Source of the DNA: Minisyncoccia bacterium
GTDB taxonomy: Bacteria > Patescibacteriota > Minisyncoccia > Phycocordibacterales > CAIZLB01
Length of the DNA: 64,000 nt
NCBI GenBank assembly: GCA_041752275.1
Contig: JBGSHK010000015.1
Coordinates: 64,641-128,640 of the forward strand
Direction of reading: 5' to 3'
Each line of letters begins with the position of its first letter. Positions within the stretch are counted from its first letter, which is position 1. Position numbers and translations under genes: made by a program. The notes beneath the pieces were generated by a model that had not been told where the DNA came from, did no database searches, and saw only the letters and a list, made by a program, of their open reading frames with translations. This document shows, one piece after another, positions 6,444 to 55,840 of this stretch.

Positions 6444-6689
6444 AATAAATTTGATTTAAAAGAAATATGCTTTAAGTGTCTGTTATTAATAATAAATGAT
6501 AATTGTCAGACGCATATTCCTCGGGCTAAATCTTTGTGAACCCGTCTTGACTATCTATATAAGATATCCAAAACGGACTACAAAAACCAACCTGTACCTA
6601 TACAAACGTATAGACCCTTTAAATATTACAATTTTAAGCGTAATGGGTCAAAACCTTTATATGTCTCATACAATAGCACATAAAGGACA

Positions 6690-7388
6690 TTATTTCAATG
6701 AGTATTTGCTCCATCGTCTTTCCCCTGTCTTTTTGAGTGTTCCTGATAGAACAAGAGATGTTAACTCTCTTTGTATAGTCTTTGAACTTATACCTTTTAT
6801 AGACTCTATAAACTCATTTATAGTTACCGCCCCGCGAGCCCTTACTATCTCCAATATCTTCTTTCTTCTCGATCCTATGTCCATAGATATGTTGTTTATT
6901 GTCTTTATGTTCTGAGTATTGTTGTTTATAGTTATATTGGACACCTTTTTCTCAACCTTATCTTCAACAATGAACTCTGCAATTTCTTTATTTTCTATAA
7001 CCATAGGCTTATGGACCTCTCCTGCTGTGTTATTTTCTATATTTAAAACCTTATCTATATATACCTCCTTTCTGTCTTCTGTTTTAGTTAGCTCATGCAA
7101 CTGATTATTGATAGCATTTATTAATAGCTCTGCATTCATCTGTGTTATCAAGTCTATATCACGAGAAAGCTTTATAAGTGAATTTAGTTTCAAAAAACTG
7201 TCTTTTTTATCTGTCTTTTCAACACAAATCACAGCAATTCTTCTTAGAGACATCTTTAAAGGTTCATCCGGCGCAAACAAATCCGTAACTAAATAAATCG
7301 CCTTCGAAATAGCTTCGACTTGAACCTGTCTTTTAATAACCAACTCTGTGTGACCGCTTGATTGATTGTTGTTATTTATACTGTCCAT
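6690..7388 (-). CDS. putative transcriptional regulator with C-terminal winged-helix (DeoR-type) HTH
   Basis: The C-terminus RRKKILEIVRARGAVTINEFIESIKGISSKTIQRELTSLVLSGTLKKTGERRW resembles a DeoR-type HTH; the gene is divergent from ftsK. Start chosen at MDSINNNN. Confidence 0.4.
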   Translation of the reverse strand: MDSINNNNQSSGHTELVIKRQVQVEAISKAIYLVTDLFAPDEPLKMSLRRIAVICVEKTDKKDSFLKLNSLIKLSRDIDLITQMNAELLINAINNQLHELTKTEDRKEVYIDKVLNIENNTAGEVHKPMVIENKEIAEFIVEDKVEKKVSNITINNNTQNIKTINNISMDIGSRRKKILEIVRARGAVTINEFIESIKGISSKTIQRELTSLVLSGTLKKTGERRWSKYSLK

Positions 7389-35649: not shown

Positions 35650-35650
35650 T

Positions 35651-35733
35651 TGCGCTGGGGGAGATTTGAACTCCCACACCCTTGCGGGCGCTACCACTAA
35701 AAGGTAGTAAGTCTACCTTTTCATTACCTGCGC
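35651..35733 (-). tRNA. type-II (long variable arm) Leu-like tRNA with anticodon UUA (would read UAA/UAG); possible suppressor or pseudo-tRNA
   Basis: Minus strand: acceptor GCGCAGG/CCAGCGC (one A-A mismatch), discriminator A73, Leu-like D-loop AAAAGGTAGA, anticodon stem CTACC/GGTAG with loop TTTTAGT (U33, anticodon 34-36 = TTA), long variable arm CGCCC-GCAA-GGGTG, canonical T-arm GGGAG-TTCAAAT-CTCCC. Confidence 0.45.
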
Positions 35734-35800
35734 ATAGTATAAGGTTACTATAGTTGTATTTGTATATCAAATAGGAATATGATATATTATTTTTACATAA

Positions 35801-35909: not shown

Positions 35910-35944
35910 GAAGCGATAAAAAGCGCCCGACGGCGCTTTTGTGT

Positions 35945-36030
35945 GGGACTTGAAAAGCTTTCCCTTATTTTTGAGAATCTTGATTCGAAAAAATGGGAAA
36001 GGTATACTGACCGTGTAACGGTCAAGTCCC
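35945..36030 (+). repeat. structured repeat element, copy A (T-arm-mimicking closing helix specific for tRNA-Val)
   Basis: gggacttga...tcaagtccc closing helix; the 3' strand equals the T-loop/T-stem of tRNA-Val 75 nt upstream. Conserved core CGAAAAGC-stem-TTTTGAG-...-CGAAAAA-stem-GGTATACTGA-hairpin(TGTAA loop). Confidence 0.6.
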
Positions 36031-36099
36031 CAATAAAGTACAAAAAAACAGAGCTCCTGAGAGCTCCATTTTTCTAAGTTAAAATATTTTCTCTAATAT

Positions 36100-39746: not shown

Positions 39747-40110
39747 TGTATGTAATTATATTCTCGAAAAATATAAAATCAAATTTCTTTAGAACTGTGA
39801 TATAGGTTTAAACTAAGTCAATGAAATTCGGAATTATGATTATAATTTACAATAAAAAATATGTTTTAAGAGGATAAAATTTGTAACTTAAAAACAGAGC
39901 TTTTCTTTATCTCACTCAAGTTTTAGTTCAGAAAATATGAATGAAGTAGAAAAAGGCTTGACGGAAGACCTTTAAGTCTGAGTCAGAAGAAAATCCCCAG
40001 CTCCTAGAGATGGGGATTATTCTGACCTTTTTCGTATGAATGAATATTTTTGTGCGACTTATATTCCTTATGAGCGTTAGCGAATTAGGAATATAGAAGT
40101 GCCCTTGTGG

Positions 40111-43526: not shown

Positions 43527-43613
43527 GGAGGAGTGGCAGAGAGGTCGATTGCACCTGTCTTGAAAACAGGAGGGCTCTAACGGGTCCCGTGAGTTCGAAT
43601 CTCACCTCCTCCG
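43527..43613 (+). tRNA. tRNA-Ser (anticodon UGA)
   Basis: Acceptor GGAGGAG/CTCCTCC, anticodon stem CCTGT/ACAGG with loop CTTGAAA, long variable arm, T-arm GTGAG-TTCGAAT-CTCAC, discriminator G. Confidence 0.8.
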
Positions 43614-45071
43614 CACGGTAAGACTATCAGCTTGATTTAACATCAAATTGAATGGAGAACGCAAGGTAAAACCTAGCGTTTTTTCATTTAATACACAGTT
43701 CTGAAGTAAGAAACCAAGAAATTGGCGCTTTTCTTCAACTTCGGAACTAATAAATATCTCTTTTGCTCGTTTTGCTATATTTAATGTTGTATTTGCTGTG
43801 ATATAGAAGTGTTCGTCCGCATCAGAGTGGTCCTTCATTTGGTCCAACACATCAGCTTGTTTCTCTTTGTACTCTTTCAAAAAGCTGTCATACATTTCAT
43901 CCGTAATACGACCGTCGAGCTTATCTTCATACATCTTCTTTATCCTTGCTTCATATTTATCGTGTTCAGTCTTGAGTGAGTTTATGCTTTGTCGGTAAAA
44001 TCTATTTTCATTTTCACCAATCTCCTTCAACGCTTCGGTAATTTCACCAATCTTTTTATCTGAAAGCTTGAAATCGAGCGCTTTGTAAACCTGCTCCAAA
44101 AGCATATCTTCAGTTACAGAGACCCTTTTACAGTCTTTGTACCCTGAACAACTGTAGTAGGTATATTTTTCTTTTTTAAGTTGCCCACCAATTACACCTC
44201 CACATTTAGCACATACAATAAGACCCCTAAAGATAAAAGGTTTTGAAGCATACTTTGTGGGAACTTTATTATGTCTTTCCATTACCTCTTGGCATTTATC
44301 AAACAGTTCCTTTGAAATAATTGGTTTATAAGCATGTCTGTACCGTAAATCATGAGTTCTTGAGTAGGCATAACCATAGTAAAAACTATCATTCAATATC
44401 TTGAATATCATAGCTTGATTTACCCTTTCATTGACCCTGCTTCTAAAACCTATTTTATACATTCTATCAGCGAGGGTTTTTACAGACACATCACCTTTCG
44501 CATATTCCTCAAAGATACGAACTATGAAATGAGCCTTGTCATCAGGCACCACATCAATCCTACGCATCCTTAATGGATTATCATTATACAAACTCTTGTA
44601 GCCAATGGCTGGCATTCCCGTAATTTCACCATCCTCTCTCATTTTGTCGTGTTTTCGTTTAAGGTTATCACTCAATTGCAACACATAACTTTTAGCAAAC
44701 ATAACGCCCATATCCCAACGCAATATATCAGCACTGTTTGACTTCTTATTTATAACAAGATTTTCTCTATAAAAATGCAACTCAACTTTATCTTCCCTTC
44801 GTAACTCGTCAAAGATAACACTCTCGCGAAAACTTCTTTGTAATCGGTCTACAGTATCCACAACAACAGCTATGGTTTCTTTTGACTTTTTTATTATTTC
44901 AATAATTTCTTGAAACTTTATTCTATACCCTTTCGTTGAACTTTCTTTCAGTTTAAATGTTTTCCACTCTTCCAAACCCTTACCTTTAACATAATCAAGG
45001 ATACGGGACAGCTGTGCATCATTACTATCTTGGTTTTTGTCACTTTCTCTGGCTAAAATAATTGCTTTCAT
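43602..45071 (-). CDS. large serine recombinase (phage-integrase-type resolvase/recombinase with zinc ribbon)
   Basis: N-terminal resolvase domain with a catalytic Ser (AIILARESDKNQDS), a central recombinase domain and a C-terminal Cys-rich zinc ribbon (CAKCGGVIGG...YYSCSGYKDC); the stop codon overlaps the tRNA-Ser 3' end by 12 nt. Confidence 0.85.
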   Translation of the reverse strand: MKAIILARESDKNQDSNDAQLSRILDYVKGKGLEEWKTFKLKESSTKGYRIKFQEIIEIIKKSKETIAVVVDTVDRLQRSFRESVIFDELRREDKVELHFYRENLVINKKSNSADILRWDMGVMFAKSYVLQLSDNLKRKHDKMREDGEITGMPAIGYKSLYNDNPLRMRRIDVVPDDKAHFIVRIFEEYAKGDVSVKTLADRMYKIGFRSRVNERVNQAMIFKILNDSFYYGYAYSRTHDLRYRHAYKPIISKELFDKCQEVMERHNKVPTKYASKPFIFRGLIVCAKCGGVIGGQLKKEKYTYYSCSGYKDCKRVSVTEDMLLEQVYKALDFKLSDKKIGEITEALKEIGENENRFYRQSINSLKTEHDKYEARIKKMYEDKLDGRITDEMYDSFLKEYKEKQADVLDQMKDHSDADEHFYITANTTLNIAKRAKEIFISSEVEEKRQFLGFLLQNCVLNEKTLGFTLRSPFNLMLNQADSLTVRRR

Positions 45072-45535
45072 TTGAATAGTGATATTATTGAAATAATAAT
45101 TGCAATTAAAGATAAAATCAGCGTTACAGGATTTTCTGTTGCTTTGTTTTTAAAATACTCCCAACCACTTTTTCCTTTAGTTGTTAATACAATACTTTCG
45201 GTTAACTCTTCAGTTACATCATAACTAAAGCTTGAGCCATTTTTTGTTTCTATTACTGGAAATGTTTTTTGAGTGCCAATAACTATTAAACCATCTAATT
45301 CCATTCTTTTTAATTCAAACATTATTTCATTTTTCCAACTCAACTCAAAAATACCATCAGGAGAATATACGGGGTATTTATCATCATATTTTTTTATGAT
45401 AAACCCATAATCAGGAAAAACTAAAGGGTCTTCAGATATAGATTGGTATTCTTCAGGGATTTCAAAGAGATATTCACTCCTAGATATTTTACTACCTTCT
45501 AACTCTTTTAATAATTTTATAAGTCTATTCCTCAT
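45068..45535 (-). CDS. hypothetical protein with C-terminal TM, translationally coupled to the recombinase
   Basis: 155 aa; 4-nt overlap with the recombinase start; C-terminal hydrophobic helix. Confidence 0.35.
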   Translation of the reverse strand: MRNRLIKLLKELEGSKISRSEYLFEIPEEYQSISEDPLVFPDYGFIIKKYDDKYPVYSPDGIFELSWKNEIMFELKRMELDGLIVIGTQKTFPVIETKNGSSFSYDVTEELTESIVLTTKGKSGWEYFKNKATENPVTLILSLIAIIISIISLFK

Positions 45536-45543
45536 ATAGCAGT

Positions 45544-45723
45544 TTATTTTGTAGTACTTAATTTATTCAAAAAGGCTTCAAAGTCCGTCTTCTCTATACG
45601 AAACTCTTTGCCTATTTTATATGCTTTTAATTTCTTTGCATCAATGTAACGATAAATAGTCATTATATTGAAGCCTAGCTTTTCTGCTAAATCTTTAGCT
45701 GTGTAGAAGTCTTTTTCTTTCAT
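45544..45723 (-). CDS. excisionase-family/MerR-like HTH DNA-binding protein (putative Xis)
   Basis: 59-aa ORF below the ORF-track cutoff (MKEKDFYTAKDLAEKLGFNIMTIYRYIDAKKLKAYKIGKEFRIEKTDFEAFLNKLSTTK); matches the excisionase-type HTH pattern. Confidence 0.5.
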   Translation of the reverse strand: MKEKDFYTAKDLAEKLGFNIMTIYRYIDAKKLKAYKIGKEFRIEKTDFEAFLNKLSTTK

Positions 45724-45750
45724 AATTTATTTTTATATTATTGTTATTAA

Positions 45751-46905
45751 TTATACTTTACTATTCTTTACATTGCAATCTTCAATGTCGGACAACCTGA
45801 AAGGTTTAAAATCATCAATAGCATCCTTTATTTGTCTTACCCAGTCGTGGTATGTTTTACCAGAAATCTCGTCTAGGAGCTTCAAATCATCAGCTATACG
45901 ATACCAAGTCCTAGATGTTGCGTATCTCTCAACCACAGCCCTAATATCCCTTATTCCCTCCTTACTTAAGACCCTTAGTCCTACTAGATACAGTGCATCT
46001 TTAGGTTTTGTATCAGGTCTGTTTTTAAAGATTGCTTCTAGTGTCTTTTTGGGATTACTTTCAACATCAAATAAGAATAGATTTTTCCCTGTTATTAACT
46101 CATCCCAATAATTTATCAATATCTTCTGACAAACATCCTTCTTGAATATATCAGCAAAAGTTGGATTTTCTTTCAACCCTAAACCCTTAAGAATTGCATT
46201 CATTTTTACCTTTTTTGTAAGTCTAGCTTCAATACGCAACACTTCTTTTTTATCTTTTTTTGTCAAAGTTTCAAAGAGTGATAGTTGAAGTGGATTTTGA
46301 TCCTTATCAATAGCTCGCTTATTACCTTTCTTTAGATCCTGAACTTTATCATACACAACAAGAGAATGAGAGTTTGTATAGAACTGAAGTGAGTGACCGT
46401 TATTCCTAAAACTATCTTTATTAAGATCCATTTTCTGACTTACATCAATCTTATGTAATTCGTTAATAACAAAACCAGAAGTATATCCTTTTGTAAACTC
46501 TATGTTCTTTGAGGGGTGAAAGACCGACACTTTTGCATTTCTTAAATCTTCTAATTTAACGTATACAAACATTTCAGTCATTGCTTCTTGTAGATTTACA
46601 ATTACCCTTTCAAAATCTTTTTCTTGGACCTCGTCAACATTGTTTCCATAAGCCATTTTTGCTACAGAAAACTCTATTTTGAGCGGTATTTCATTACCGT
46701 TTTTTGTCGGTCTTTTCATCAGTGTAATTCTTGGTTTGTAAAAACCTTCTTTCTTATCTGTGGCGGTAGGATTATTTACACATTTAATGAGATAATTTCC
46801 TGACATTTTAAGAATATTCGCATTAGGAGTAAAAGCTTCGGGTCGAAGTCTATAGTAGCCTCTCGGTATCGTTAATATTACTGTGTCTAGCATATACATT
46901 TTCAT
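45751..46905 (-). CDS. putative replication initiation protein (Rep_trans-like)
   Basis: 384 aa; the segment HSLQFYTNSHSLVVYDKVQDL resembles the Rep_trans active-site RxYDK region; the mobile-element context fits. Confidence 0.35.
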   Translation of the reverse strand: MKMYMLDTVILTIPRGYYRLRPEAFTPNANILKMSGNYLIKCVNNPTATDKKEGFYKPRITLMKRPTKNGNEIPLKIEFSVAKMAYGNNVDEVQEKDFERVIVNLQEAMTEMFVYVKLEDLRNAKVSVFHPSKNIEFTKGYTSGFVINELHKIDVSQKMDLNKDSFRNNGHSLQFYTNSHSLVVYDKVQDLKKGNKRAIDKDQNPLQLSLFETLTKKDKKEVLRIEARLTKKVKMNAILKGLGLKENPTFADIFKKDVCQKILINYWDELITGKNLFLFDVESNPKKTLEAIFKNRPDTKPKDALYLVGLRVLSKEGIRDIRAVVERYATSRTWYRIADDLKLLDEISGKTYHDWVRQIKDAIDDFKPFRLSDIEDCNVKNSKV

Positions 46906-47182
46906 TACTTATTTTATTTTTATAAATCAAAACCTCTTCTGCTTTTGTTATAATTGCCTGTTCAATATCCAAAGCAATCTTTCTGTTTATCGGATGAAAA
47001 ACATTGAAGTTTTTACCGTTCAGGTTTTTGGTCGGATAAGTTACTCGATATCCACTTCCATCTAATTTTGTATGAATACCGATTGAGCCAAGATACAGAC
47101 TATTCTCAATAACTAAACTTGCTATAGCTACAAGTCCATTATTTGGCTTTATTGGTATTATTTGTATTTCTGTTATTTTCAT
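46850..47182 (-). CDS. SpoVG-family protein
   Basis: MKITEIQIIPIKPNNGLVAIASLVIENSLYLGSIGIH...FHPINRKIALDIEQAII aligns with SpoVG (AIAS...HPIN) conserved blocks. Confidence 0.55.
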   Translation of the reverse strand: MKITEIQIIPIKPNNGLVAIASLVIENSLYLGSIGIHTKLDGSGYRVTYPTKNLNGKNFNVFHPINRKIALDIEQAIITKAEEVLIYKNKISNENVYARHSNINDTERLL

Positions 47183-47384
47183 ATAGATGTGGATTTACTC
47201 TTTTATCAACCTTCAACAACAATGCGAAAAAACCAAGTAGGTTGTTTCGGTCTATTTCGTTGAGTTCTTTCAACGACCAGTCCTTCTTTATTTCTTTTTT
47301 GTTATTGTTTTCGGACATAAAAAAACCTGTAAGGGTGTCTTACAGATTAATTTAATTGATGTTTACAAAAGTTTGTAAACTTTT

Positions 47385-48959
47385 CTAGGGTTTCAAATAC
47401 TTCTTATTTATGGATATTGATTTAGTAGTAATATCCAGAAAATCCTTGATTTTTGTATCTTGAGCTATGATACTGTTAACCTTTTTACCTGCCTGATAAA
47501 CCTTATTTTCAGAGACCTTTTCGCCAAACTTATAACCCCAATCATCAATTACCTCGTCATTTGCCCATATCTTATTTTCATCCTTGAACAAGGTCCTCAT
47601 CAGCTTATGAGGGTCGCTTTCTTCCTTTTTTGATATAAGTATTTCTTCATTGTTAAATGAAAGTTTACGTGTATTTTCATCAAACGAAAGCGATGACGGG
47701 TTCTTGATTTCTTTTTTTTCCTTACCTTGTTTCAGTCTAATCGTAAACAGAAAACCTCTATCGTATAAATCAAACATCTGTTTTGGACCGTATGAAAAAT
47801 CTTCGATTTCAAGATAGCCATCTTTTTCGAGAGATAACATTGTATGGACAAATAAAAACAAATTAATAGTGTCGTTTTTATTATTTCTGCTTATTTTAAA
47901 AGTATCATTTGTATCATTTCCAATGTATTCTGGTTCAAAATATGGATGACCTATTTCCAAATCATCTCTTTGATACTCTTCATATTTTTCTTGAATATGC
48001 TTTATCAAAATATCCCTTTGTTTTTTAAAACCAAAAAATTGAGTGTGCAATTGCAAAGATAAACCTTCAGAAAAGAAAGTTCCTGTTAAGCCCTTTTTAC
48101 TTAAACCGTGCAAATTATCATTAATGAAAGCTGTAAGATACTCATCTAGATACTTTTCTATTTTATCTGTTTTCTTTATAAATAAACCAAAATTAGTATA
48201 TTCAAAAATCAGTCTTGATAATTTTTGTTGACTATCTTCATGAAGAAAGTTTTCTGCTGTAAAACCACCTTTCTTTAGCTTTTCTCTATTATGTTTATAA
48301 AACATTAATAAAAACTTTTCTATATCTTCTGTATTCCATTTACCGCCGTCATATTCAGGTACTAATTTGTGGACCAACTCAATAAAATCTTCATCAGCTT
48401 GTTTGTCTAGTATTGCATCTCTATATTCTTTTACTGGCTGATGCTCAAGTTCAGAAAACTTACTATTATCAAAATCATCATCTTTTAACATGTTTTCAAG
48501 AAAAGCTCTTTGCTCATTACTCAAGCTACCGTATTTTTCAACATCGTTTCTATTCTCTTCGGTATCTTCAAGATATTCCTTCATTAATCTCCCTGAATAT
48601 TCAGATAAAAAACCTCCCTCAAGCAGACTGTAGTCAGCATCGCCATACACCAAGAAACTTTCTTCGTCGAGTTCTTTTCCTGTATTTAATAGGTAGTTAA
48701 GAATTGTAGGAGACCCTGTTTTGTCATGTATCCTTTGAGTCGATTGCTTAATGGCTTTATTTATATCATCTTCAATTGTTGCAATATCACTAGGATTTTT
48801 TGGTTCAGAGACAAAAACATGCTTACCATCAAGAGTAAAAACATTACTCCATAGTGTTGAAATATGCTTCTTTTTTAGTATCCAATAAAGAATGAAAAGT
48901 TCCTTTTCATTTAGGTAGTTTTTATCTTTGTTTTCTAAATCGATTGTCCAACTGTTCAT
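47385..48959 (-). CDS. hypothetical 524-aa cargo protein of the integrated element
   Basis: Long soluble, acidic protein with no recognisable catalytic motif; the largest gene inside the island. Confidence 0.35.
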   Translation of the reverse strand: MNSWTIDLENKDKNYLNEKELFILYWILKKKHISTLWSNVFTLDGKHVFVSEPKNPSDIATIEDDINKAIKQSTQRIHDKTGSPTILNYLLNTGKELDEESFLVYGDADYSLLEGGFLSEYSGRLMKEYLEDTEENRNDVEKYGSLSNEQRAFLENMLKDDDFDNSKFSELEHQPVKEYRDAILDKQADEDFIELVHKLVPEYDGGKWNTEDIEKFLLMFYKHNREKLKKGGFTAENFLHEDSQQKLSRLIFEYTNFGLFIKKTDKIEKYLDEYLTAFINDNLHGLSKKGLTGTFFSEGLSLQLHTQFFGFKKQRDILIKHIQEKYEEYQRDDLEIGHPYFEPEYIGNDTNDTFKISRNNKNDTINLFLFVHTMLSLEKDGYLEIEDFSYGPKQMFDLYDRGFLFTIRLKQGKEKKEIKNPSSLSFDENTRKLSFNNEEILISKKEESDPHKLMRTLFKDENKIWANDEVIDDWGYKFGEKVSENKVYQAGKKVNSIIAQDTKIKDFLDITTKSISINKKYLKP

Positions 48960-49030
48960 ACGCTTTACTTTACTTTACATTCCAATATAATTCAACGATA
49001 TATAGAAAAAGTTTTAGATTGTTCAATCAA

Positions 49031-49390
49031 TTATTTAACAGTTTTCTTTTTGAAGATTTGGCGTGTCATCAACCCTAATATAACAATACTGAAAAAAACA
49101 CTAATCTGAACATAGTAATTGGTCAGAGTCGCATAACTAGATAAATAAAACACTGCGACAAAAATACAATAATGCCACCATTTTGGCTTAATACTGTTTG
49201 GATTATTCTTACCTTTAGAGTAAAGCAACGCCATTCCCAACATAAGTATGACCATTACAACAATGACACCTAATCCTAATATCTTTTGCGTAGTGACATC
49301 CAACGAGTTACCTTCTAACATTGTTGCCAACGTCGCAATCCATCTGTAGTTTAGAACTATTAATAATATTAGGTAATTTCCCAATGGCAT
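49031..49390 (-). CDS. hypothetical membrane protein (3-4 TM)
   Basis: Hydrophobic profile only. Confidence 0.3.
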   Translation of the reverse strand: MPLGNYLILLIVLNYRWIATLATMLEGNSLDVTTQKILGLGVIVVMVILMLGMALLYSKGKNNPNSIKPKWWHYCIFVAVFYLSSYATLTNYYVQISVFFSIVILGLMTRQIFKKKTVK

Positions 49391-49506
49391 ATCTGTATAA
49401 TATCACCATATTTAATGATTTGCATCAAAATGCACTTTGGTTTACTTTTACTTTGGTATGTATTAAGTTATAATACCATTATTACTTTTAATCATAAAAA
49501 AATATT

Positions 49507-49965
49507 ATGGACACAATCCAAACGCCTAATCAGGCAACACCAATCATTAAAAAAAAATCTATATGGTCAACATTGATATGGATTGGTTACTTTATATCCA
49601 TGCTAGCGACACTTTCTAATTTTTTCCTTTTTCTAACATTAAGAATAACGGATGGTAAGGACATTATAACCTCATCAGATGGTACAAGTATTAGCTTGAA
49701 TGCGTCATTAATAGCCACTGCCATTACTTTAATAATTTATTCAATTTTAACTGTATATTGTATAAAAAGAAAAAAGTCTACCTTAAAACTGTTGCCTGTG
49801 CTTGAGGTTATTTTATATTTTGTAGGTATTGCAAGTGCCATAATAATTTTTCAACTAAATGACTTATCAATGGCATATCTTCTTGGACCGATAATAAGTG
49901 GTTTAATAAGACCAGCAATAGCGATATTTGTTATGTATAAAAACAAAGCTGATTACATTTCGTAA
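49507..49965 (+). CDS. hypothetical membrane protein (4 TM)
   Basis: Hydrophobic profile only. Confidence 0.3.
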   Translation: MDTIQTPNQATPIIKKKSIWSTLIWIGYFISMLATLSNFFLFLTLRITDGKDIITSSDGTSISLNASLIATAITLIIYSILTVYCIKRKKSTLKLLPVLEVILYFVGIASAIIIFQLNDLSMAYLLGPIISGLIRPAIAIFVMYKNKADYIS

Positions 49966-50159
49966 AACTGGCATTATTTTTAAAGCCTATAACAGTATTA
50001 GAACTGTATACGTACCTAAACAGTCGCATATAGTTTTTTTATTCCCAGAAATCCCAATTCTTGCTTAACGGCCGTCCAATTCACAGTTCTGAACGCATCT
50101 ACCCACTCCCGCTATGAGAAAATGAATACATACTTGTTATGTATTCATTTTTGATTATA

Positions 50160-50203
50160 GGAGGAGAGGAGGCCGACAGTTTTGCTTCCGTGTGAGATTC
50201 GAA
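50160..50203 (+). pseudogene. degenerate tRNA-Ser fragment (acceptor/D-region fused to the T-arm 5' half) at the right end of the island
   Basis: ggaggagaggaggccgacag...ccgtgtgagattcgaa versus tRNA-Ser GGAGGAGTGGCAGAGAGGTCGA...CCCGTGAGTTCGAA; the anticodon arm is missing. Confidence 0.45.
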
Positions 50204-50277
50204 AAGCTTTTCTATGTTTTGAGCGCTGTGGTGCGAAAAACGAGAAAAGGTATACTGAAGCTGTAAGCTTCGAATCT
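50195..50277 (+). repeat. structured repeat element, copy B (closing helix agattcgaa/ttcgaatct mimicking the tRNA-Ser T-loop)
   Basis: Same conserved core as copy A (cgaaaagcttttc...ttttgag...cgaaaaa...gagaaaaggtatactga-gaagc-tgtaa-gcttc); inserted in the T-loop position of the degenerate tRNA-Ser fragment. Confidence 0.6.
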
Positions 50278-50296
50278 ATCGTGCTATAATAACCCC

Positions 50297-50713
50297 ATGA
50301 ACTGGACCATATACGCCCTACTCTCTGCTGTATTTGCTGCACTTGTAGCAATATTTGGAAAGCTAGGTTTAAAAAATATTGATTCAACTTTAGCTACAAC
50401 TATACGTTCGATAGTTATGGCAATCTTTCTAATAATCACAGCATTCTCTTTAGGTAAGTTTAATTTTTTAAATACTATAGACAATAAAGCTTTGATATTT
50501 ATCATACTCTCAGGTGTGTCAGGTGCAATATCTTGGTTGTTTTATTTTTTAGCTATCAAACTCGGTCCTGTTAGTGCGGTAGCAGCCATAGATAGAACAA
50601 GTATAGTTTTTGTTTTTGTACTATCTGTGTTGTTTTTGAGTGAATCATTAACAGTATTAAAAAGTATAGGCGCACTTGCCATAGTAATCGGTGCTATATT
50701 AATGGCATTATAA
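50297..50713 (+). CDS. small EamA-like (DMT superfamily) membrane transporter
   Basis: 138 aa with 4 TMs and an EamA-like pattern (ALLSAVFAALVAIFGKLGL ... ISWLFYFLAIKLGP). Confidence 0.5.
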   Translation: MNWTIYALLSAVFAALVAIFGKLGLKNIDSTLATTIRSIVMAIFLIITAFSLGKFNFLNTIDNKALIFIILSGVSGAISWLFYFLAIKLGPVSAVAAIDRTSIVFVFVLSVLFLSESLTVLKSIGALAIVIGAILMAL

Positions 50714-50768: not shown

Positions 50769-52097
50769 ATGAATGAAACTCAAAAAGTAAGAAAACAAAT
50801 AATATCTATAGCATTGCCTGTGTCTATAGGTTTTTTATTTAACACATTATTCAACGTTGTTGATACATATTGGGCAGGAAAAATATCATCTGAAGCCTTA
50901 GCTTCTTTATCTATAACATTTCCTGTTTTTTTTATAATCCTTGCCTTTGGTAATGGTTTGTCTATTGCAACCACAGCACTCATGAGTAACGCCTATGGAG
51001 AAAAAGACGATAAAAAAGCTTTATCATATTATTTTCATTCTATATTCATAGGAGCCATAATAGGTTTTTTTATTAGTTTTTTTGCAGAAAATATAGCTAA
51101 AACTATTTTTAGTTTATCAAAAATACCAGCCGAATTACAATCTATAGCTTTGCTATATATTATGCCAATACTTTCCTTTTCAATATTTTTTATATATCCT
51201 TTTTTACTTAATAGTATTTTAAATGCACAAGGTAACACAAAACCTCTTAGAAATTCTCTTGTGTTTGGTTTTTTTATAAACTGTATTTTAAATCCATGGT
51301 TTATGTATGGGGGATTTGGTTTACCGTCTATGGGTATTGTAGGTATAGCTTATGCAACTATAGTTGTGCAAATACTATCAAGTATTTATATATTTTATGA
51401 AATAAATAAAAGAAATTTATTTAATAATTTTTTTAAAATAAAATCATATTTTTCTATACAAAAATTAAGTGAAATTATAATACAATCCATACCTTCTGTT
51501 TTAAATTTTTCTTTAATAATAGTTGGCTCAATTGTATTATTTTATTTTATATCTTCTTTTGATTCATCAGTTTTTAGTGGATATTCTATAGCCTTACGTT
51601 TAGAACAAATAGCTCTTTTACCGGCTATAGGGTTAAACATTGCGGTGCTTTCTCTTATAGGTAAATACAATGGTGCAAAAGATCATAAATCAATGAGGCT
51701 GGTTATAAACGAATCTTTAAAAATAGGTTTATATATAATGTCTTTTGGTACTGTGTGTATATTAATTTTTGGAGGTTATATTAGTGGTTTATTTTCAACA
51801 GATCAAAAAGTCATAGATGAGGCTGTAAAATATTTAACACCTGCAGCTATAGGTCTTTTTGCATATGCTGTTATTTTTATAACAAATTCTTTTTTTCAAG
51901 GTATAAAAAAACCAAACATAACACTTATTGTAAGTGTTGTAAGACAAATAGTTTTACCATTTATAATATTCTATATTTTAGAAAAATATACAGAATTAAA
52001 TGTATATATGATATGGTATACGATTTTATTTATTACAGTTTTTTCAGCGATAATTTCTTATATTTATATGATGAGATTTATAAAAATGAGAGAATAA
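50769..52097 (+). CDS. MATE-family efflux transporter
   Basis: 442 aa with 12 predicted TMs and an N-terminal MATE pattern (ALPVSIGFLFNTLFNVVDTYWAGKIS). Confidence 0.75.
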   Translation: MNETQKVRKQIISIALPVSIGFLFNTLFNVVDTYWAGKISSEALASLSITFPVFFIILAFGNGLSIATTALMSNAYGEKDDKKALSYYFHSIFIGAIIGFFISFFAENIAKTIFSLSKIPAELQSIALLYIMPILSFSIFFIYPFLLNSILNAQGNTKPLRNSLVFGFFINCILNPWFMYGGFGLPSMGIVGIAYATIVVQILSSIYIFYEINKRNLFNNFFKIKSYFSIQKLSEIIIQSIPSVLNFSLIIVGSIVLFYFISSFDSSVFSGYSIALRLEQIALLPAIGLNIAVLSLIGKYNGAKDHKSMRLVINESLKIGLYIMSFGTVCILIFGGYISGLFSTDQKVIDEAVKYLTPAAIGLFAYAVIFITNSFFQGIKKPNITLIVSVVRQIVLPFIIFYILEKYTELNVYMIWYTILFITVFSAIISYIYMMRFIKMRE

Positions 52098-55697: not shown

Positions 55698-55737
55698 CGA
55701 TTTGTGGTTCTGAGCAAGCAAACTGCTTTGCTTGCGT

Positions 55738-55840
55738 CTAGGAATCGAAAAGTTTTGTGATGTTTTTGAGAATTTGCAAAATTCGAAAAAACCACAAAGG
55801 TGTACTGGTCCTGTAAGGACCGATTCCTAGCAGGAGCACA
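55738..55840 (+). repeat. structured repeat element, copy D, fused to a partial tRNA-Arg 3'-end copy
   Basis: Closing helix ctaggaatcg/cgattcctag, then caggagcaca identical to the tRNA-Arg 3' end; core cgaaaagttttgtg...tttttgag...cgaaaaaa-cacaaaggtgtactgg-tcc-tgtaa-gga. Confidence 0.6.

Follow-up and report, generated by a model that had tools for sequence, protein, structure and literature searches.

Introduction

Cis-mobilizable elements (CIMEs) are flanked by att sites. At the folded recombination sites of phage CTXphi (attP(+)) and of integrons (attC), the enzyme acts in trans and recognition is largely by structure. CTXphi is an integrative mobile element exploiting Xer (IMEX) that uses the host XerCD, and the right junction of its integrated form consists of attP1, ~90 nt, and attP2/dif. 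In R2 elements, the P1 helix of a ribozyme resembling that of hepatitis delta virus is built with target 28S rRNA sequence. Here, we compare such systems with a short structured repeat from a Minisyncoccia bacterium. The DNA analyzed (the window) comprises 64,000 nucleotides (nt) of contig JBGSHK010000015.1 (assembly GCA_041752275.1, positions 64,641 to 128,640 of the forward strand). The repeat (copy B, window positions 50160–50277) lies downstream of a tRNA-Ser gene and an integrated island. It is one of ~190 copies of a single structured family that is specific to Patescibacteria (candidate phyla radiation, CPR) and has been unannotated so far.

We regard copy B as a partly decayed member of this family, and its members as putative protein-less mini insertion cassettes; we give this reading a probability of roughly 0.5. 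The comparisons described below directly support a family with a common fold that is linked to tRNA 3′ ends and independent of the island, and whose cores are exchangeable.

A structured repeat family in Patescibacteria

A relaxed blastn search with 50190–50277 detected relatives at three further sites of the window (35.9, 55.57, and 55.74 kb; copies A, C, and D in Table 1). The covariance model built from the four copies returned exactly these four, all on the + strand and with scores of 83–104 bits; the next match scored 16 bits. Each of the four copies folded singly into the same three-way junction (z = −4.0 to −4.9). Copy B itself scored 82.8–83.1 bits with the covariance model (E = 6e-18, R1; 7.7e-15, R2), in agreement with the initial annotation of the locus, which had placed it in a structured repeat family.

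Beyond the window, one pattern was scanned over one genome per species, and covariance models were applied to the 77 loci returned (individual loci are designated by L numbers). The first model gave 60 matches and the second 87, in 60 loci. All but one of these 60 loci were labelled as Patescibacteria lineages (Saccharibacteria, Nomurabacteria, Paceibacterota, Parcubacteria, and similar) or as unclassified or "uncultured bacterium". The pattern also matched in Bacillus, Pedobacter, Chlorobi, and other genomes outside the CPR, and the covariance model confirmed none of these matches. In metagenomes, the scan yielded 110 stretches; the 80 loci returned contained 105 confirmed copies. IMG/VR viral contigs, scanned twice with patterns, gave zero matches and one chance match, and no true copy. 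The lone match lay inside an open reading frame (ORF) and had no covariance-model match, and a viral origin was rejected.

The common fold starts with the closing helix P1, followed by a junction strand (typically GAAA), helix P2, the junction GGU(A/G)UACUGA, and helix P3 with the loop UGUAA, which abuts the 3′ strand of P1. In P2, a long hairpin, the internal loop is a tandem G.A (UUUUGAG...CGAAAAA). Among the cells of 60 copies, 91.4% were paired, compared to 65% after shuffling and 42–57% in slid registers, and 31 of the 32 pairs changed on both sides. P1 was paired in 88.7% of cells, and all of its 7 pairs covaried. When one conserved A.C position was set aside, G.U outnumbered A.C in P2 and P3 (50 vs 21), which indicates that the + strand is the folding strand. 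The corresponding counts in the P1 arms were 21 and 28, a mismatch pattern that looks like neutral decay.

Rfam 15 reported only tRNAs and rRNAs in the window and seven loci, with no match to the family at gathering thresholds, and no credible match was obtained at E ≤ 1–10 around copy B, L054, L059, or L024. Full-text literature searches yielded no description of the family. Hammerhead and other known ribozyme cores were considered and rejected, as the order of their junction strands does not fit (compared by eye); the Rfam result agrees with this.

Linkage to the 3′ ends of tRNA genes

A copy was scored as linked to a tRNA gene when it lay on the same strand and ≤450 nt downstream; all sampled loci had been chosen for containing the element. 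By this measure, 50 of the 98 tRNAs in the genome loci were followed by a copy (23 anticodons). Likewise, 62 of the 105 metagenome copies were placed after a tRNA, at a median distance of 72 nt, and covered 26 anticodons. Most copies lay ~40–80 nt 3′ of a same-strand tRNA, and more than 25 anticodons were represented overall.

The closing helix follows the sequence of the neighboring tRNA. In P1, the 5′ strand is reverse-complementary to the T-loop and the 3′ T-stem strand of its own tRNA, including the unusual GTCAGCA of tRNA-Asp, and the 3′ strand of P1 runs into a direct copy of the 3′ end of this tRNA. The duplicated end (X) starts in the T-loop directly past P3 and ends 0–7 nt beyond the tRNA, rarely at +13 or +29; its length is 13–50 nt. 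A full unit of ~130–190 nt lies between two copies of the tRNA 3′ end (X1 and X2), each reaching from approximately tRNA position 54–57 to a few bases past the discriminator. The order is tRNA with X1, trailer and terminator hairpin, an anti-acceptor stretch and the hairpin P0 (where present), the arm complementary to the T-loop and T-stem (anti-X), the core, and X2. Because the anti-X arm and X2 are complementary, the folded + strand forms a long helix with the core as its cap. This helix reproduces the duplex of the 3′ third of the tRNA gene.

P0 is found upstream of the arm in many copies. It comprises 8–9 bp of the form GRAAG...CTTYC and is preceded by the anti-acceptor, a stretch of 7–9 nt complementary to the acceptor 3′ strand. 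In minimum-energy folds, the anti-acceptor paired with the acceptor part of the duplicated end in 26 of ~60 copies. (An ungapped test that allowed G.U pairs had too high a background to be informative, and folding was used instead.) As both the arm and the anti-acceptor pair with the duplicated end, the whole element takes the form of a tRNA-like minihelix. In this minihelix, the place of the D and anticodon arms is taken by P0, and that of the T-loop by the three-way junction.

Copy B and the tRNA-Ser island

The initial annotation had described 50160–50277 as the right boundary (attR) of an island at tRNA-Ser, consisting of a degenerate tRNA-Ser copy with a structured repeat in its T-loop. 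Much of what it reported from the sequence was reproduced. An intact tRNA-Ser is located 6.6 kb upstream of copy B, as determined by ARAGORN and the Rfam tRNA model, with the T-loop TTCGAAT at 43594–43600, the 3′ T-stem CTCAC at 43601–43605, and the 3′ acceptor CTCCTCC at 43606–43612. The flagged stretch opens with GGAGGAG, as had been written, and TTCGAA occurs on both sides of copy B (50198–50203 and 50269–50274). The final nine nucleotides, TTCGAATCT, are a direct copy of the tRNA-Ser T-loop region at 43594–43602. The G+C fraction is 0.41–0.43 across 50050–50350, compared to 0.25–0.35 nearby. In addition, GTGAGATTCGAA is the exact reverse complement, over 12 nt, of tRNA-Ser TTCGAATCTCAC (43594–43605). 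A structured repeat in the T-loop of a tRNA-like frame is also a good description of how the family as a whole is arranged.

The proposed tRNA-Ser 5′ portion lacking the anticodon arm (50160–50203) did not hold. Its alignment to tRNA-Ser beyond GGAGGAG was not significant: the left part of copy B gave a local alignment score of 19, which was equalled or exceeded by 61–142 of 1000 shuffles. No tRNA was reported at 50160–50277 by ARAGORN or by the Rfam tRNA model (RF00005), even at E ≤ 10. Across the family, left flanks were no nearer to their own tRNA than to other tRNAs, and neither P0 nor the left flank derives from a tRNA body. The identity of copy B as a degenerate tRNA-Ser was therefore ruled out, both by the insignificant alignment and by the missing left-flank homology in the family. 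The same module of anti-acceptor, P0, and 5′ arm is found in members beside other tRNAs, which further argues against 50160–50203 as a tRNA-Ser 5′ part. The core of copy B follows the family order, with the junction GAAAAG, P2 with the same tandem G.A loop, the junction GGUAUACUGA, and P3 with the loop UGUAA.

An island beside tRNA-Ser, with a recombinase gene inside (43602–45071) and a decayed direct repeat of the tRNA 3′ end at its far end, is present as proposed. Its closing copy is not located at the flagged site; it lies upstream, at 50063–50117. The alignment of this segment to 43574–43623 scored 26, compared to a shuffle mean of 17.5, and 13 of 500 shuffles reached this score. A second candidate pair is the 15/16 direct repeat AAT[A/T]CACAGTTCTGAA at 43690–43705 and 50078–50093, the right member of which lies inside the decayed tRNA-Ser half. 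The support for this pair is moderate, as 40 of 500 shuffles of the region scored as high. Whichever pair served, the island ends 45–100 nt upstream of the start of the flagged stretch.

The island encodes the serine recombinase, an HTH_17 excisionase-like protein, a SpoVG-like protein, and unknown proteins. An identical 489-aa recombinase was found in a second assembly and contains the Pfam domains Resolvase, Recombinase, and Zn_ribbon_recom. On the − strand, the segment 45544–48959 holds the genes for the HTH_17 and SpoVG-like proteins and for two proteins of 384 aa and 524 aa without a Pfam match. Relatives of the recombinase in IMG/VR were limited to one match of 32% identity, which gave no help in locating the island ends. 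An empty-site allele within the species was not found; the sole other assembly with these proteins (Logan SRR28170465) carries the island.

The order of events is indicated by a related genome, Ca. Nomurabacteria ZE-17mar17-71 (L070). No island is present there: tRNA-Ser is followed after 135 nt by an orthologue of copy B, and the same EamA gene comes next. The core of this orthologue is 90% identical to that of copy B, its P0 is homologous, and its duplicated tRNA end is shortened, too. Since the island is absent at this tRNA-Ser while the orthologue is present, copy B is older than the island and chromosomal. The island-free site thus retains the repeat, which was not created by insertion of the island. 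The flagged stretch is a separate feature that adjoins the island boundary and is not the edge of the island. The AT-rich hairpin between the two (50120–50152) fell under the G+C threshold of the consensus scan, and a terminator hairpin occupies the same position in L070 and in other copies. A parallel was found at tRNA-Asn in L023, where the tRNA is separated by a 1.6-kb insert from an older unit, which retains a decayed tRNA piece of its own.

The initial annotation had also linked the repeat family to integrase-mediated recombination at tRNA T-loops. The tie to T-loops was borne out by ~190 copies, and the integrase part was not supported, as there is no recombinase by copies A, C, and D, nor is any recombinase family enriched around the ~190 copies. 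In the window neighborhoods of copies A, C, and D, there is likewise no island, reverse transcriptase, or Nop-domain protein. Copy D is bordered by terminator-like hairpins, and copies C and D lie upstream of pyrD.

Table 1. Positions of the family copies, the tRNA-Ser island, and adjoining features in the window
Feature	Coordinates	Strand	Remarks
Copy B, anti-acceptor GGAGGAG	50160..50166	+	Complementary to tRNA-Ser 3′ acceptor strand CTCCTCC
Copy B, P0 hairpin (GGAGGC...GCTTCC)	50168..50189	+	RNAfold; homologous hairpin in L070, copies A and D, and many others
Copy B, 5′ arm GTGAGATTCGAA	50192..50203	+	Reverse complement of tRNA-Ser positions 54–65
Copy B, type-1 core	50204..50268	+	Fold z = −4.05; covariance-model match 83 bits
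Copy B, 3′ arm TTCGAATCT	50269..50277	+	Sole remnant of duplicated tRNA-Ser 3′ end; acceptor part lost
Copy A (P0 and three-way junction)	35919..36032	+	67 nt past tRNA-Val(tac); arm GGGACTTGAA matches tRNA-Val T-loop
Copy C and duplicated tRNA-Arg(gcg) 3′ end GTTCGATTCCTAGCAGGAACACAA	55565..55669	+	41 nt past the tRNA
Copy D (P0 and three-way junction) and second duplicated tRNA-Arg(gcg) 3′ end CGATTCCTAGCAGGAGCACA	55714..55840	+	
Intact tRNA-Ser(tga)	43527..43614	+	ARAGORN; Rfam tRNA model 58.5 bits
Large serine recombinase gene	43602..45071	-	Last codons overlap tRNA-Ser 3′ end, through left junction of island
AATACACAGTTCTGAA, left member of 15/16 direct repeat	43690..43705	+	Candidate recombinase crossover core
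Integrated island, ~6.4 kb	43615..50062	.	Alternative bounds 43706–50077 if the 16-nt repeat pair was used
Decayed tRNA-Ser (variable arm to 3′ end, with trailer)	50063..50117	+	attR-like repeat of island
AT-rich terminator-like hairpin and T run	50120..50152	+	Between island junction and copy B
EamA-family membrane protein gene	50297..50713	+	Starts 20 nt past copy B; MATE transporter gene (50769–52097) next

Exchangeable cores and other settings

The behavior of the units was examined by comparison of related loci. After tRNA-Arg(tct), L070 has a unit at a site where the window has none, and the shared sequence resumes directly past the duplicated end. This insert includes a terminator. The sister genomes L011 and L024 have identical tRNA-Cys and near-identical tRNA-Leu genes. 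After tRNA-Cys, they share the hairpin, the anti-acceptor, P0, the arm GGCGGGAATTGAA, and the 3′ AATTCC. The core of L011 is of type 1, the type found in copy B, and that of L024 is an unrelated "type 2" (AGCCGGA...GAGGCGGGGTCGC...GTGACC, with hairpins between). The same arms around unrelated cores in two sister genomes indicate that the cores behave as exchangeable cassettes.

Type-2 cores were also found elsewhere in L024 and in further loci (L024:510–620 and 770–900; L010:3540–3600; L021, L027, L034, and L076), and in L041 and L047 they lie upstream of type-1 copies. A type-3 core is present in L004 and L019. Types 2 and 3 both lie after tRNAs in the same frame of arm and duplicated end, and neither has an Rfam match. 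L034 carries two identical tandem type-2 units after tRNA-Asp, and tandem units that each have their own duplicated end are represented by copies C and D in the window and by others elsewhere. Across species, P2 and the junction are 96–99% identical at Cys, Ser, Asp, Trp, and Leu tRNAs, while the arms, P0, and P3 differ.

No ORF was found inside the units. Within 3 kb of the ~190 copies, the neighboring genes showed only housekeeping synteny, with no enrichment of recombinases, reverse transcriptases, Nop-domain proteins, or IntI/Xer.

The family is not confined to tRNA genes. In L062, L046, L028, and L050, a core is located at the 3′ end of rplK, with an arm that pairs with the last codons. 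In L055 (5216–5452), a type-1 core lies inside a duplicated 5′ part of 5S rRNA (~24 nt and 13 nt), ~40 nt upstream of the full 5S gene; 5S rRNA can thus also be used as a host gene. The closing helix is fixed (GGUGAGAA/UUCUCAUC) in L033, L055, and L073. A larger RNA of ~190 nt, with a type-1 core and an intrinsic terminator, was found at L054:1480–1700, L064:4990–5200 (+) and 6480–6700 (−), and L045:2990–3200 (−). It contains in addition a 12-bp hairpin (CGAAATGAGAAT...ATTCTCATTTCG) and a hairpin with the conserved loop GAAUACAUGGA. One of these copies lies 71 nt upstream of a LOG-family gene. The ~190-nt RNA may be a standalone small RNA or a leader.

Some type-1 copies carry a nested insert of ~85–90 nt in the P3 loop (...TGTAAACATTCTTGAAC...CATTTGTCCAAGTAAG...). 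It was observed at L047:6316–6405 (−), L048:2215–2290 (+), and L066:2013–2105 (+), and also in L023, ~114 nt past tRNA-Asn and directly between the tRNA and the duplicated end.

Discussion

According to the reading that we prefer, a cassette would enter the T-loop of a tRNA gene and bring a replacement 3′ end together with a terminator, thereby displacing the old end. The folded single strand would be the substrate for recombination or recognition, through mimicry of its target, and the enzyme would act in trans. At the locus studied here, copy B is an old arrival after tRNA-Ser, with X2 since decayed to TTCGAATCT. The 6.4-kb serine-recombinase island came in later, between tRNA-Ser and copy B, and left its own decayed tRNA-Ser 3′ half at 50063–50117.

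The units share several features with tRNA-targeting islands and CIMEs: the position in the 3′ part of the tRNA with the crossover region in the T-loop, a surrogate 3′ end that keeps the tRNA intact, a direct repeat formed by the displaced end, accretion in tandem at one tRNA, and the lack of own genes. They differ from them in their size of 130–190 nt, in the strongly covarying single-strand fold, in the arm complementary to the repeat, and in the range of more than 25 tRNAs, each with a matching arm and no linked integrase.

The second resemblance is to CTXphi attP(+) and integron attC. In both, inverted arms surround a variable or structured center of 60–100 nt, and the stem imitates the target duplex; in the family, the arms are imperfectly inverted, the center varies, and one strand folds. 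The integrated CTXphi junction offers a similar analogy, with an inverted arm, a center of ~70–90 nt, and a direct arm joined to the remainder of the target. This order of arms suggests a structure-guided recombination substrate that is used by an enzyme in trans. In contrast to attC and CTXphi, the stem of the family is not a fixed dif or GTTRRRY core, as it follows the neighboring tRNA, rplK, or 5S gene. Moreover, the folding strand of the family could be either DNA or RNA.

Other systems resemble the family in single respects. As in R2 retrotransposons, a junction RNA would pair with a highly expressed host RNA gene in the same orientation. Unlike R2, the family has no reverse transcriptase and no ribozyme homology, its host is bacterial, and the target is duplicated with the host gene left intact. 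In the tRNA-like domain of transfer-messenger RNA (tmRNA), in YrlA (bacterial Y RNA), and in mascRNA, as here, the remainder of the tRNA body is replaced by another structure, and the minihelix of acceptor and T-stem could recruit tRNA-processing enzymes. In contrast to these RNAs, the family replaces the T-loop itself by a junction, copies the neighboring tRNA exactly, is often decayed, and has no Rfam match. With miniature inverted-repeat transposable elements, it has in common ~190 copies, no coding capacity, and a flanking duplication, but its arms are target-specific, fixed terminal inverted repeats are absent, and there is no autonomous partner near the copies. With regard to IS110 bridge RNA, IS1111 seekRNA, and the tigRNA of TIGR (tandem interspaced guide RNA) systems, no DEDD recombinase or Tas gene adjoins the copies. 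Those RNAs have two loops or spacers, which address two different sequences or strands in tandem; the two arms of the family are complementary to each other. TIGR arrays consist of 36-nt units (PMC12045711), and no such arrays were found here. Taken together, the nearest kin would be tRNA-targeting insertion elements and folded att-like sites, with a real chance that the family stands further from known systems.

Several points weigh against the insertion cassette. No enzyme, excised form, or clean empty/filled pair within one species was found, and the element is absent from IMG/VR viral contigs. The matching of the arm to each new tRNA (retargeting) is the weak point, as it is left unexplained: a near-identical P2 at different tRNAs with different arms is not what a fixed attP-type site predicts. 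Matching to more than 25 tRNAs could come from copying of the arm from the target, from gene conversion of the core, or from strong sequence constraint on an old functional RNA. The strong covariation of P2 and P3 speaks for a functional RNA no less than for a DNA recombination site. Finally, copies also occur in the other settings described above (standalone with a terminator, after rplK, and before 5S rRNA).

Since retargeting is not explained by a fixed site, a resident functional non-coding RNA is a serious alternative, although we consider it clearly less probable than the cassette. The tRNA-like minihelix of anti-X and X2 would then be a scaffold for processing or stability. RNase P and tRNA 3′-end enzymes would process it, with P0 in place of the D and anticodon arms and the core in place of the T-loop. 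The core, with the tandem G.A loop of P2, GGUGUACUGA, and the UGUAA loop that resembles a T-loop, would be the binding site of a protein or ligand. In another version, the anti-X arm would serve as a guide against the neighboring tRNA, rplK mRNA, or 5S rRNA. Much of the evidence suits such an RNA: the covariation of 31 of 32 pairs and the excess of G.U over A.C in P2 and P3, a P2 and junction that are near-invariant across species while P3 and P0 covary, the acceptor pairing in 26 copies, and an orientation that is always that of the upstream tRNA. The standalone variants have their own terminator (L054, L064, and L045), and the hosts are all highly expressed translation genes. However, copies decay: the acceptor part of X2 is gone from A and B, and the invariant CUGA is mutated in the L070 orthologue of copy B. 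The arm mismatches look neutral, presence and absence vary among close relatives, unrelated cores occupy the same frame, and the element is usually separated from the tRNA by a terminator.

It is also conceivable, though doubtful, that the units are protein-less RNA-programmed cassettes whose interchangeable cores (type 1 and at least two others) are ribozymes or guide scaffolds. Such a cassette would base-pair to the 3′ end of a highly expressed RNA gene and copy itself, and the gene end and the arm would be rebuilt from the target. We consider it unlikely that the units are RNA-driven mobile cassettes in which the cores are catalytic or guide RNAs, possibly of new ribozyme classes, with a substrate helix made from target-derived sequence, comparable to the P1 helix of R2 elements. 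These would have spread via an RNA intermediate to the 3′ ends of tRNA, rRNA, and ribosomal protein genes, with the arms copied from the target. An arbitrary closing helix set by the target around a conserved three-way junction is in line with this, as are near-identical cores with different arms, several unrelated structured cores in the same layout, and the lack of an associated protein. The duplicated segment is, in addition, fixed at the P3/X junction and variable at its distal end. On the other hand, no similarity to Rfam ribozyme classes was found even at E < 10, and the window neighborhoods contain no reverse transcriptase. The interruption of the complement of X by P0 is not accounted for by simple fold-back copying. 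A reported lack of group II introns in Patescibacteria (PMC13011429) also counts against an RNA-driven cassette.

The interpretation of copy B and its TTCGAA flanks as attR, made by an integrase in the T-loop, is very improbable. The island does begin at tRNA-Ser with a recombinase gene, and copy B does hold 9 nt of direct and 12 nt of inverted T-loop sequence. This interpretation is already contradicted by the orthologue in island-free L070. Furthermore, the longer decayed tRNA-Ser half and the 15/16 repeat pair end the island upstream of copy B, and the other three copies in the window and ~190 elsewhere have no island. The recombinase is of the large serine type, and such enzymes need just a short common core at their att sites.

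A riboswitch-like 5′ leader of the EamA–MATE operon, with an incidental resemblance to tRNA, is just as hard to sustain for copy B: the three-way junction, the variable closing stem, the conserved junction bases, the location 20 nt before EamA (kept in L070), and the placement of copies C and D before pyrD and of a larger terminator-bearing variant before a LOG-family gene would suit it, but 49 of the 87 genome copies have no same-strand gene ≤450 nt downstream, the remaining downstream genes are heterogeneous, the dominant association is with the upstream tRNA, and no terminator or alternative pairing that sequesters the ribosome-binding site is evident.

If the preferred reading of a protein-less insertion cassette is true, a small structured passenger that no annotation pipeline reports accompanies a large fraction of the tRNA genes of Patescibacteria; in the sampled loci, which were picked for containing the element, approximately half of the tRNAs carry a copy. 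The family would be a testable system for how a protein-less element finds many tRNA genes and keeps each of them intact. The system may be programmable, as each arm follows its target; if the RNA-programmed reading were true, Patescibacteria, with their reduced genomes, would harbor a programmable insertion system of a new kind. The strongly covarying, RNA-like folds that are missing from Rfam number at least one and probably three or more. Duplicated tRNA 3′ ends in Patescibacteria should not be taken as island boundaries before cassettes have been checked for; in the window, a true island junction and a cassette lie less than 100 nt apart.

Additional features near tRNA genes

Some tRNAs upstream of copies were missed by ARAGORN. 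In L016, L029, L040, and L053, these are apparent split tRNA-Asp/Asn genes with group I introns, in which a GATATAGTCC-type core is followed by the tRNA 3′ exon. They fit the group I introns that have been described in tRNAs of Patescibacteria (PMC13011429).

A conserved 193-aa protein (MKNLAGVA.CD.DIRRELGR...) is encoded next to tRNA-Asn units on two unrelated contigs, at L023:5459–6040 (−) and L040:725–1306 (+). Its gene lies between the tRNA and the unit in one contig, and after three tandem units in the other.

In the window, ARAGORN reported an 85-nt type-II tRNA at 35650–35734 (−), back to back with the tRNA-Val that precedes copy A. Its anticodon is UUA, which would read the UAA stop codon. 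The Rfam tRNA model did not report it at the gathering score, and it could be a suppressor tRNA or a pseudogene.

A 56-nt hairpin element is located at 40055–40110 (−) of the window, with its CCA start directly past the discriminator of tRNA-Arg(tct) (CCACAAGGGCACTTCTATATTCCTAATTCGCTAACGCTCATAAGGAATATAAGTCG). A near-identical sequence follows a duplicated tRNA-Lys end in L044, and a related piece follows the unit in L030. This hairpin looks like a second kind of small tRNA-tail insert.

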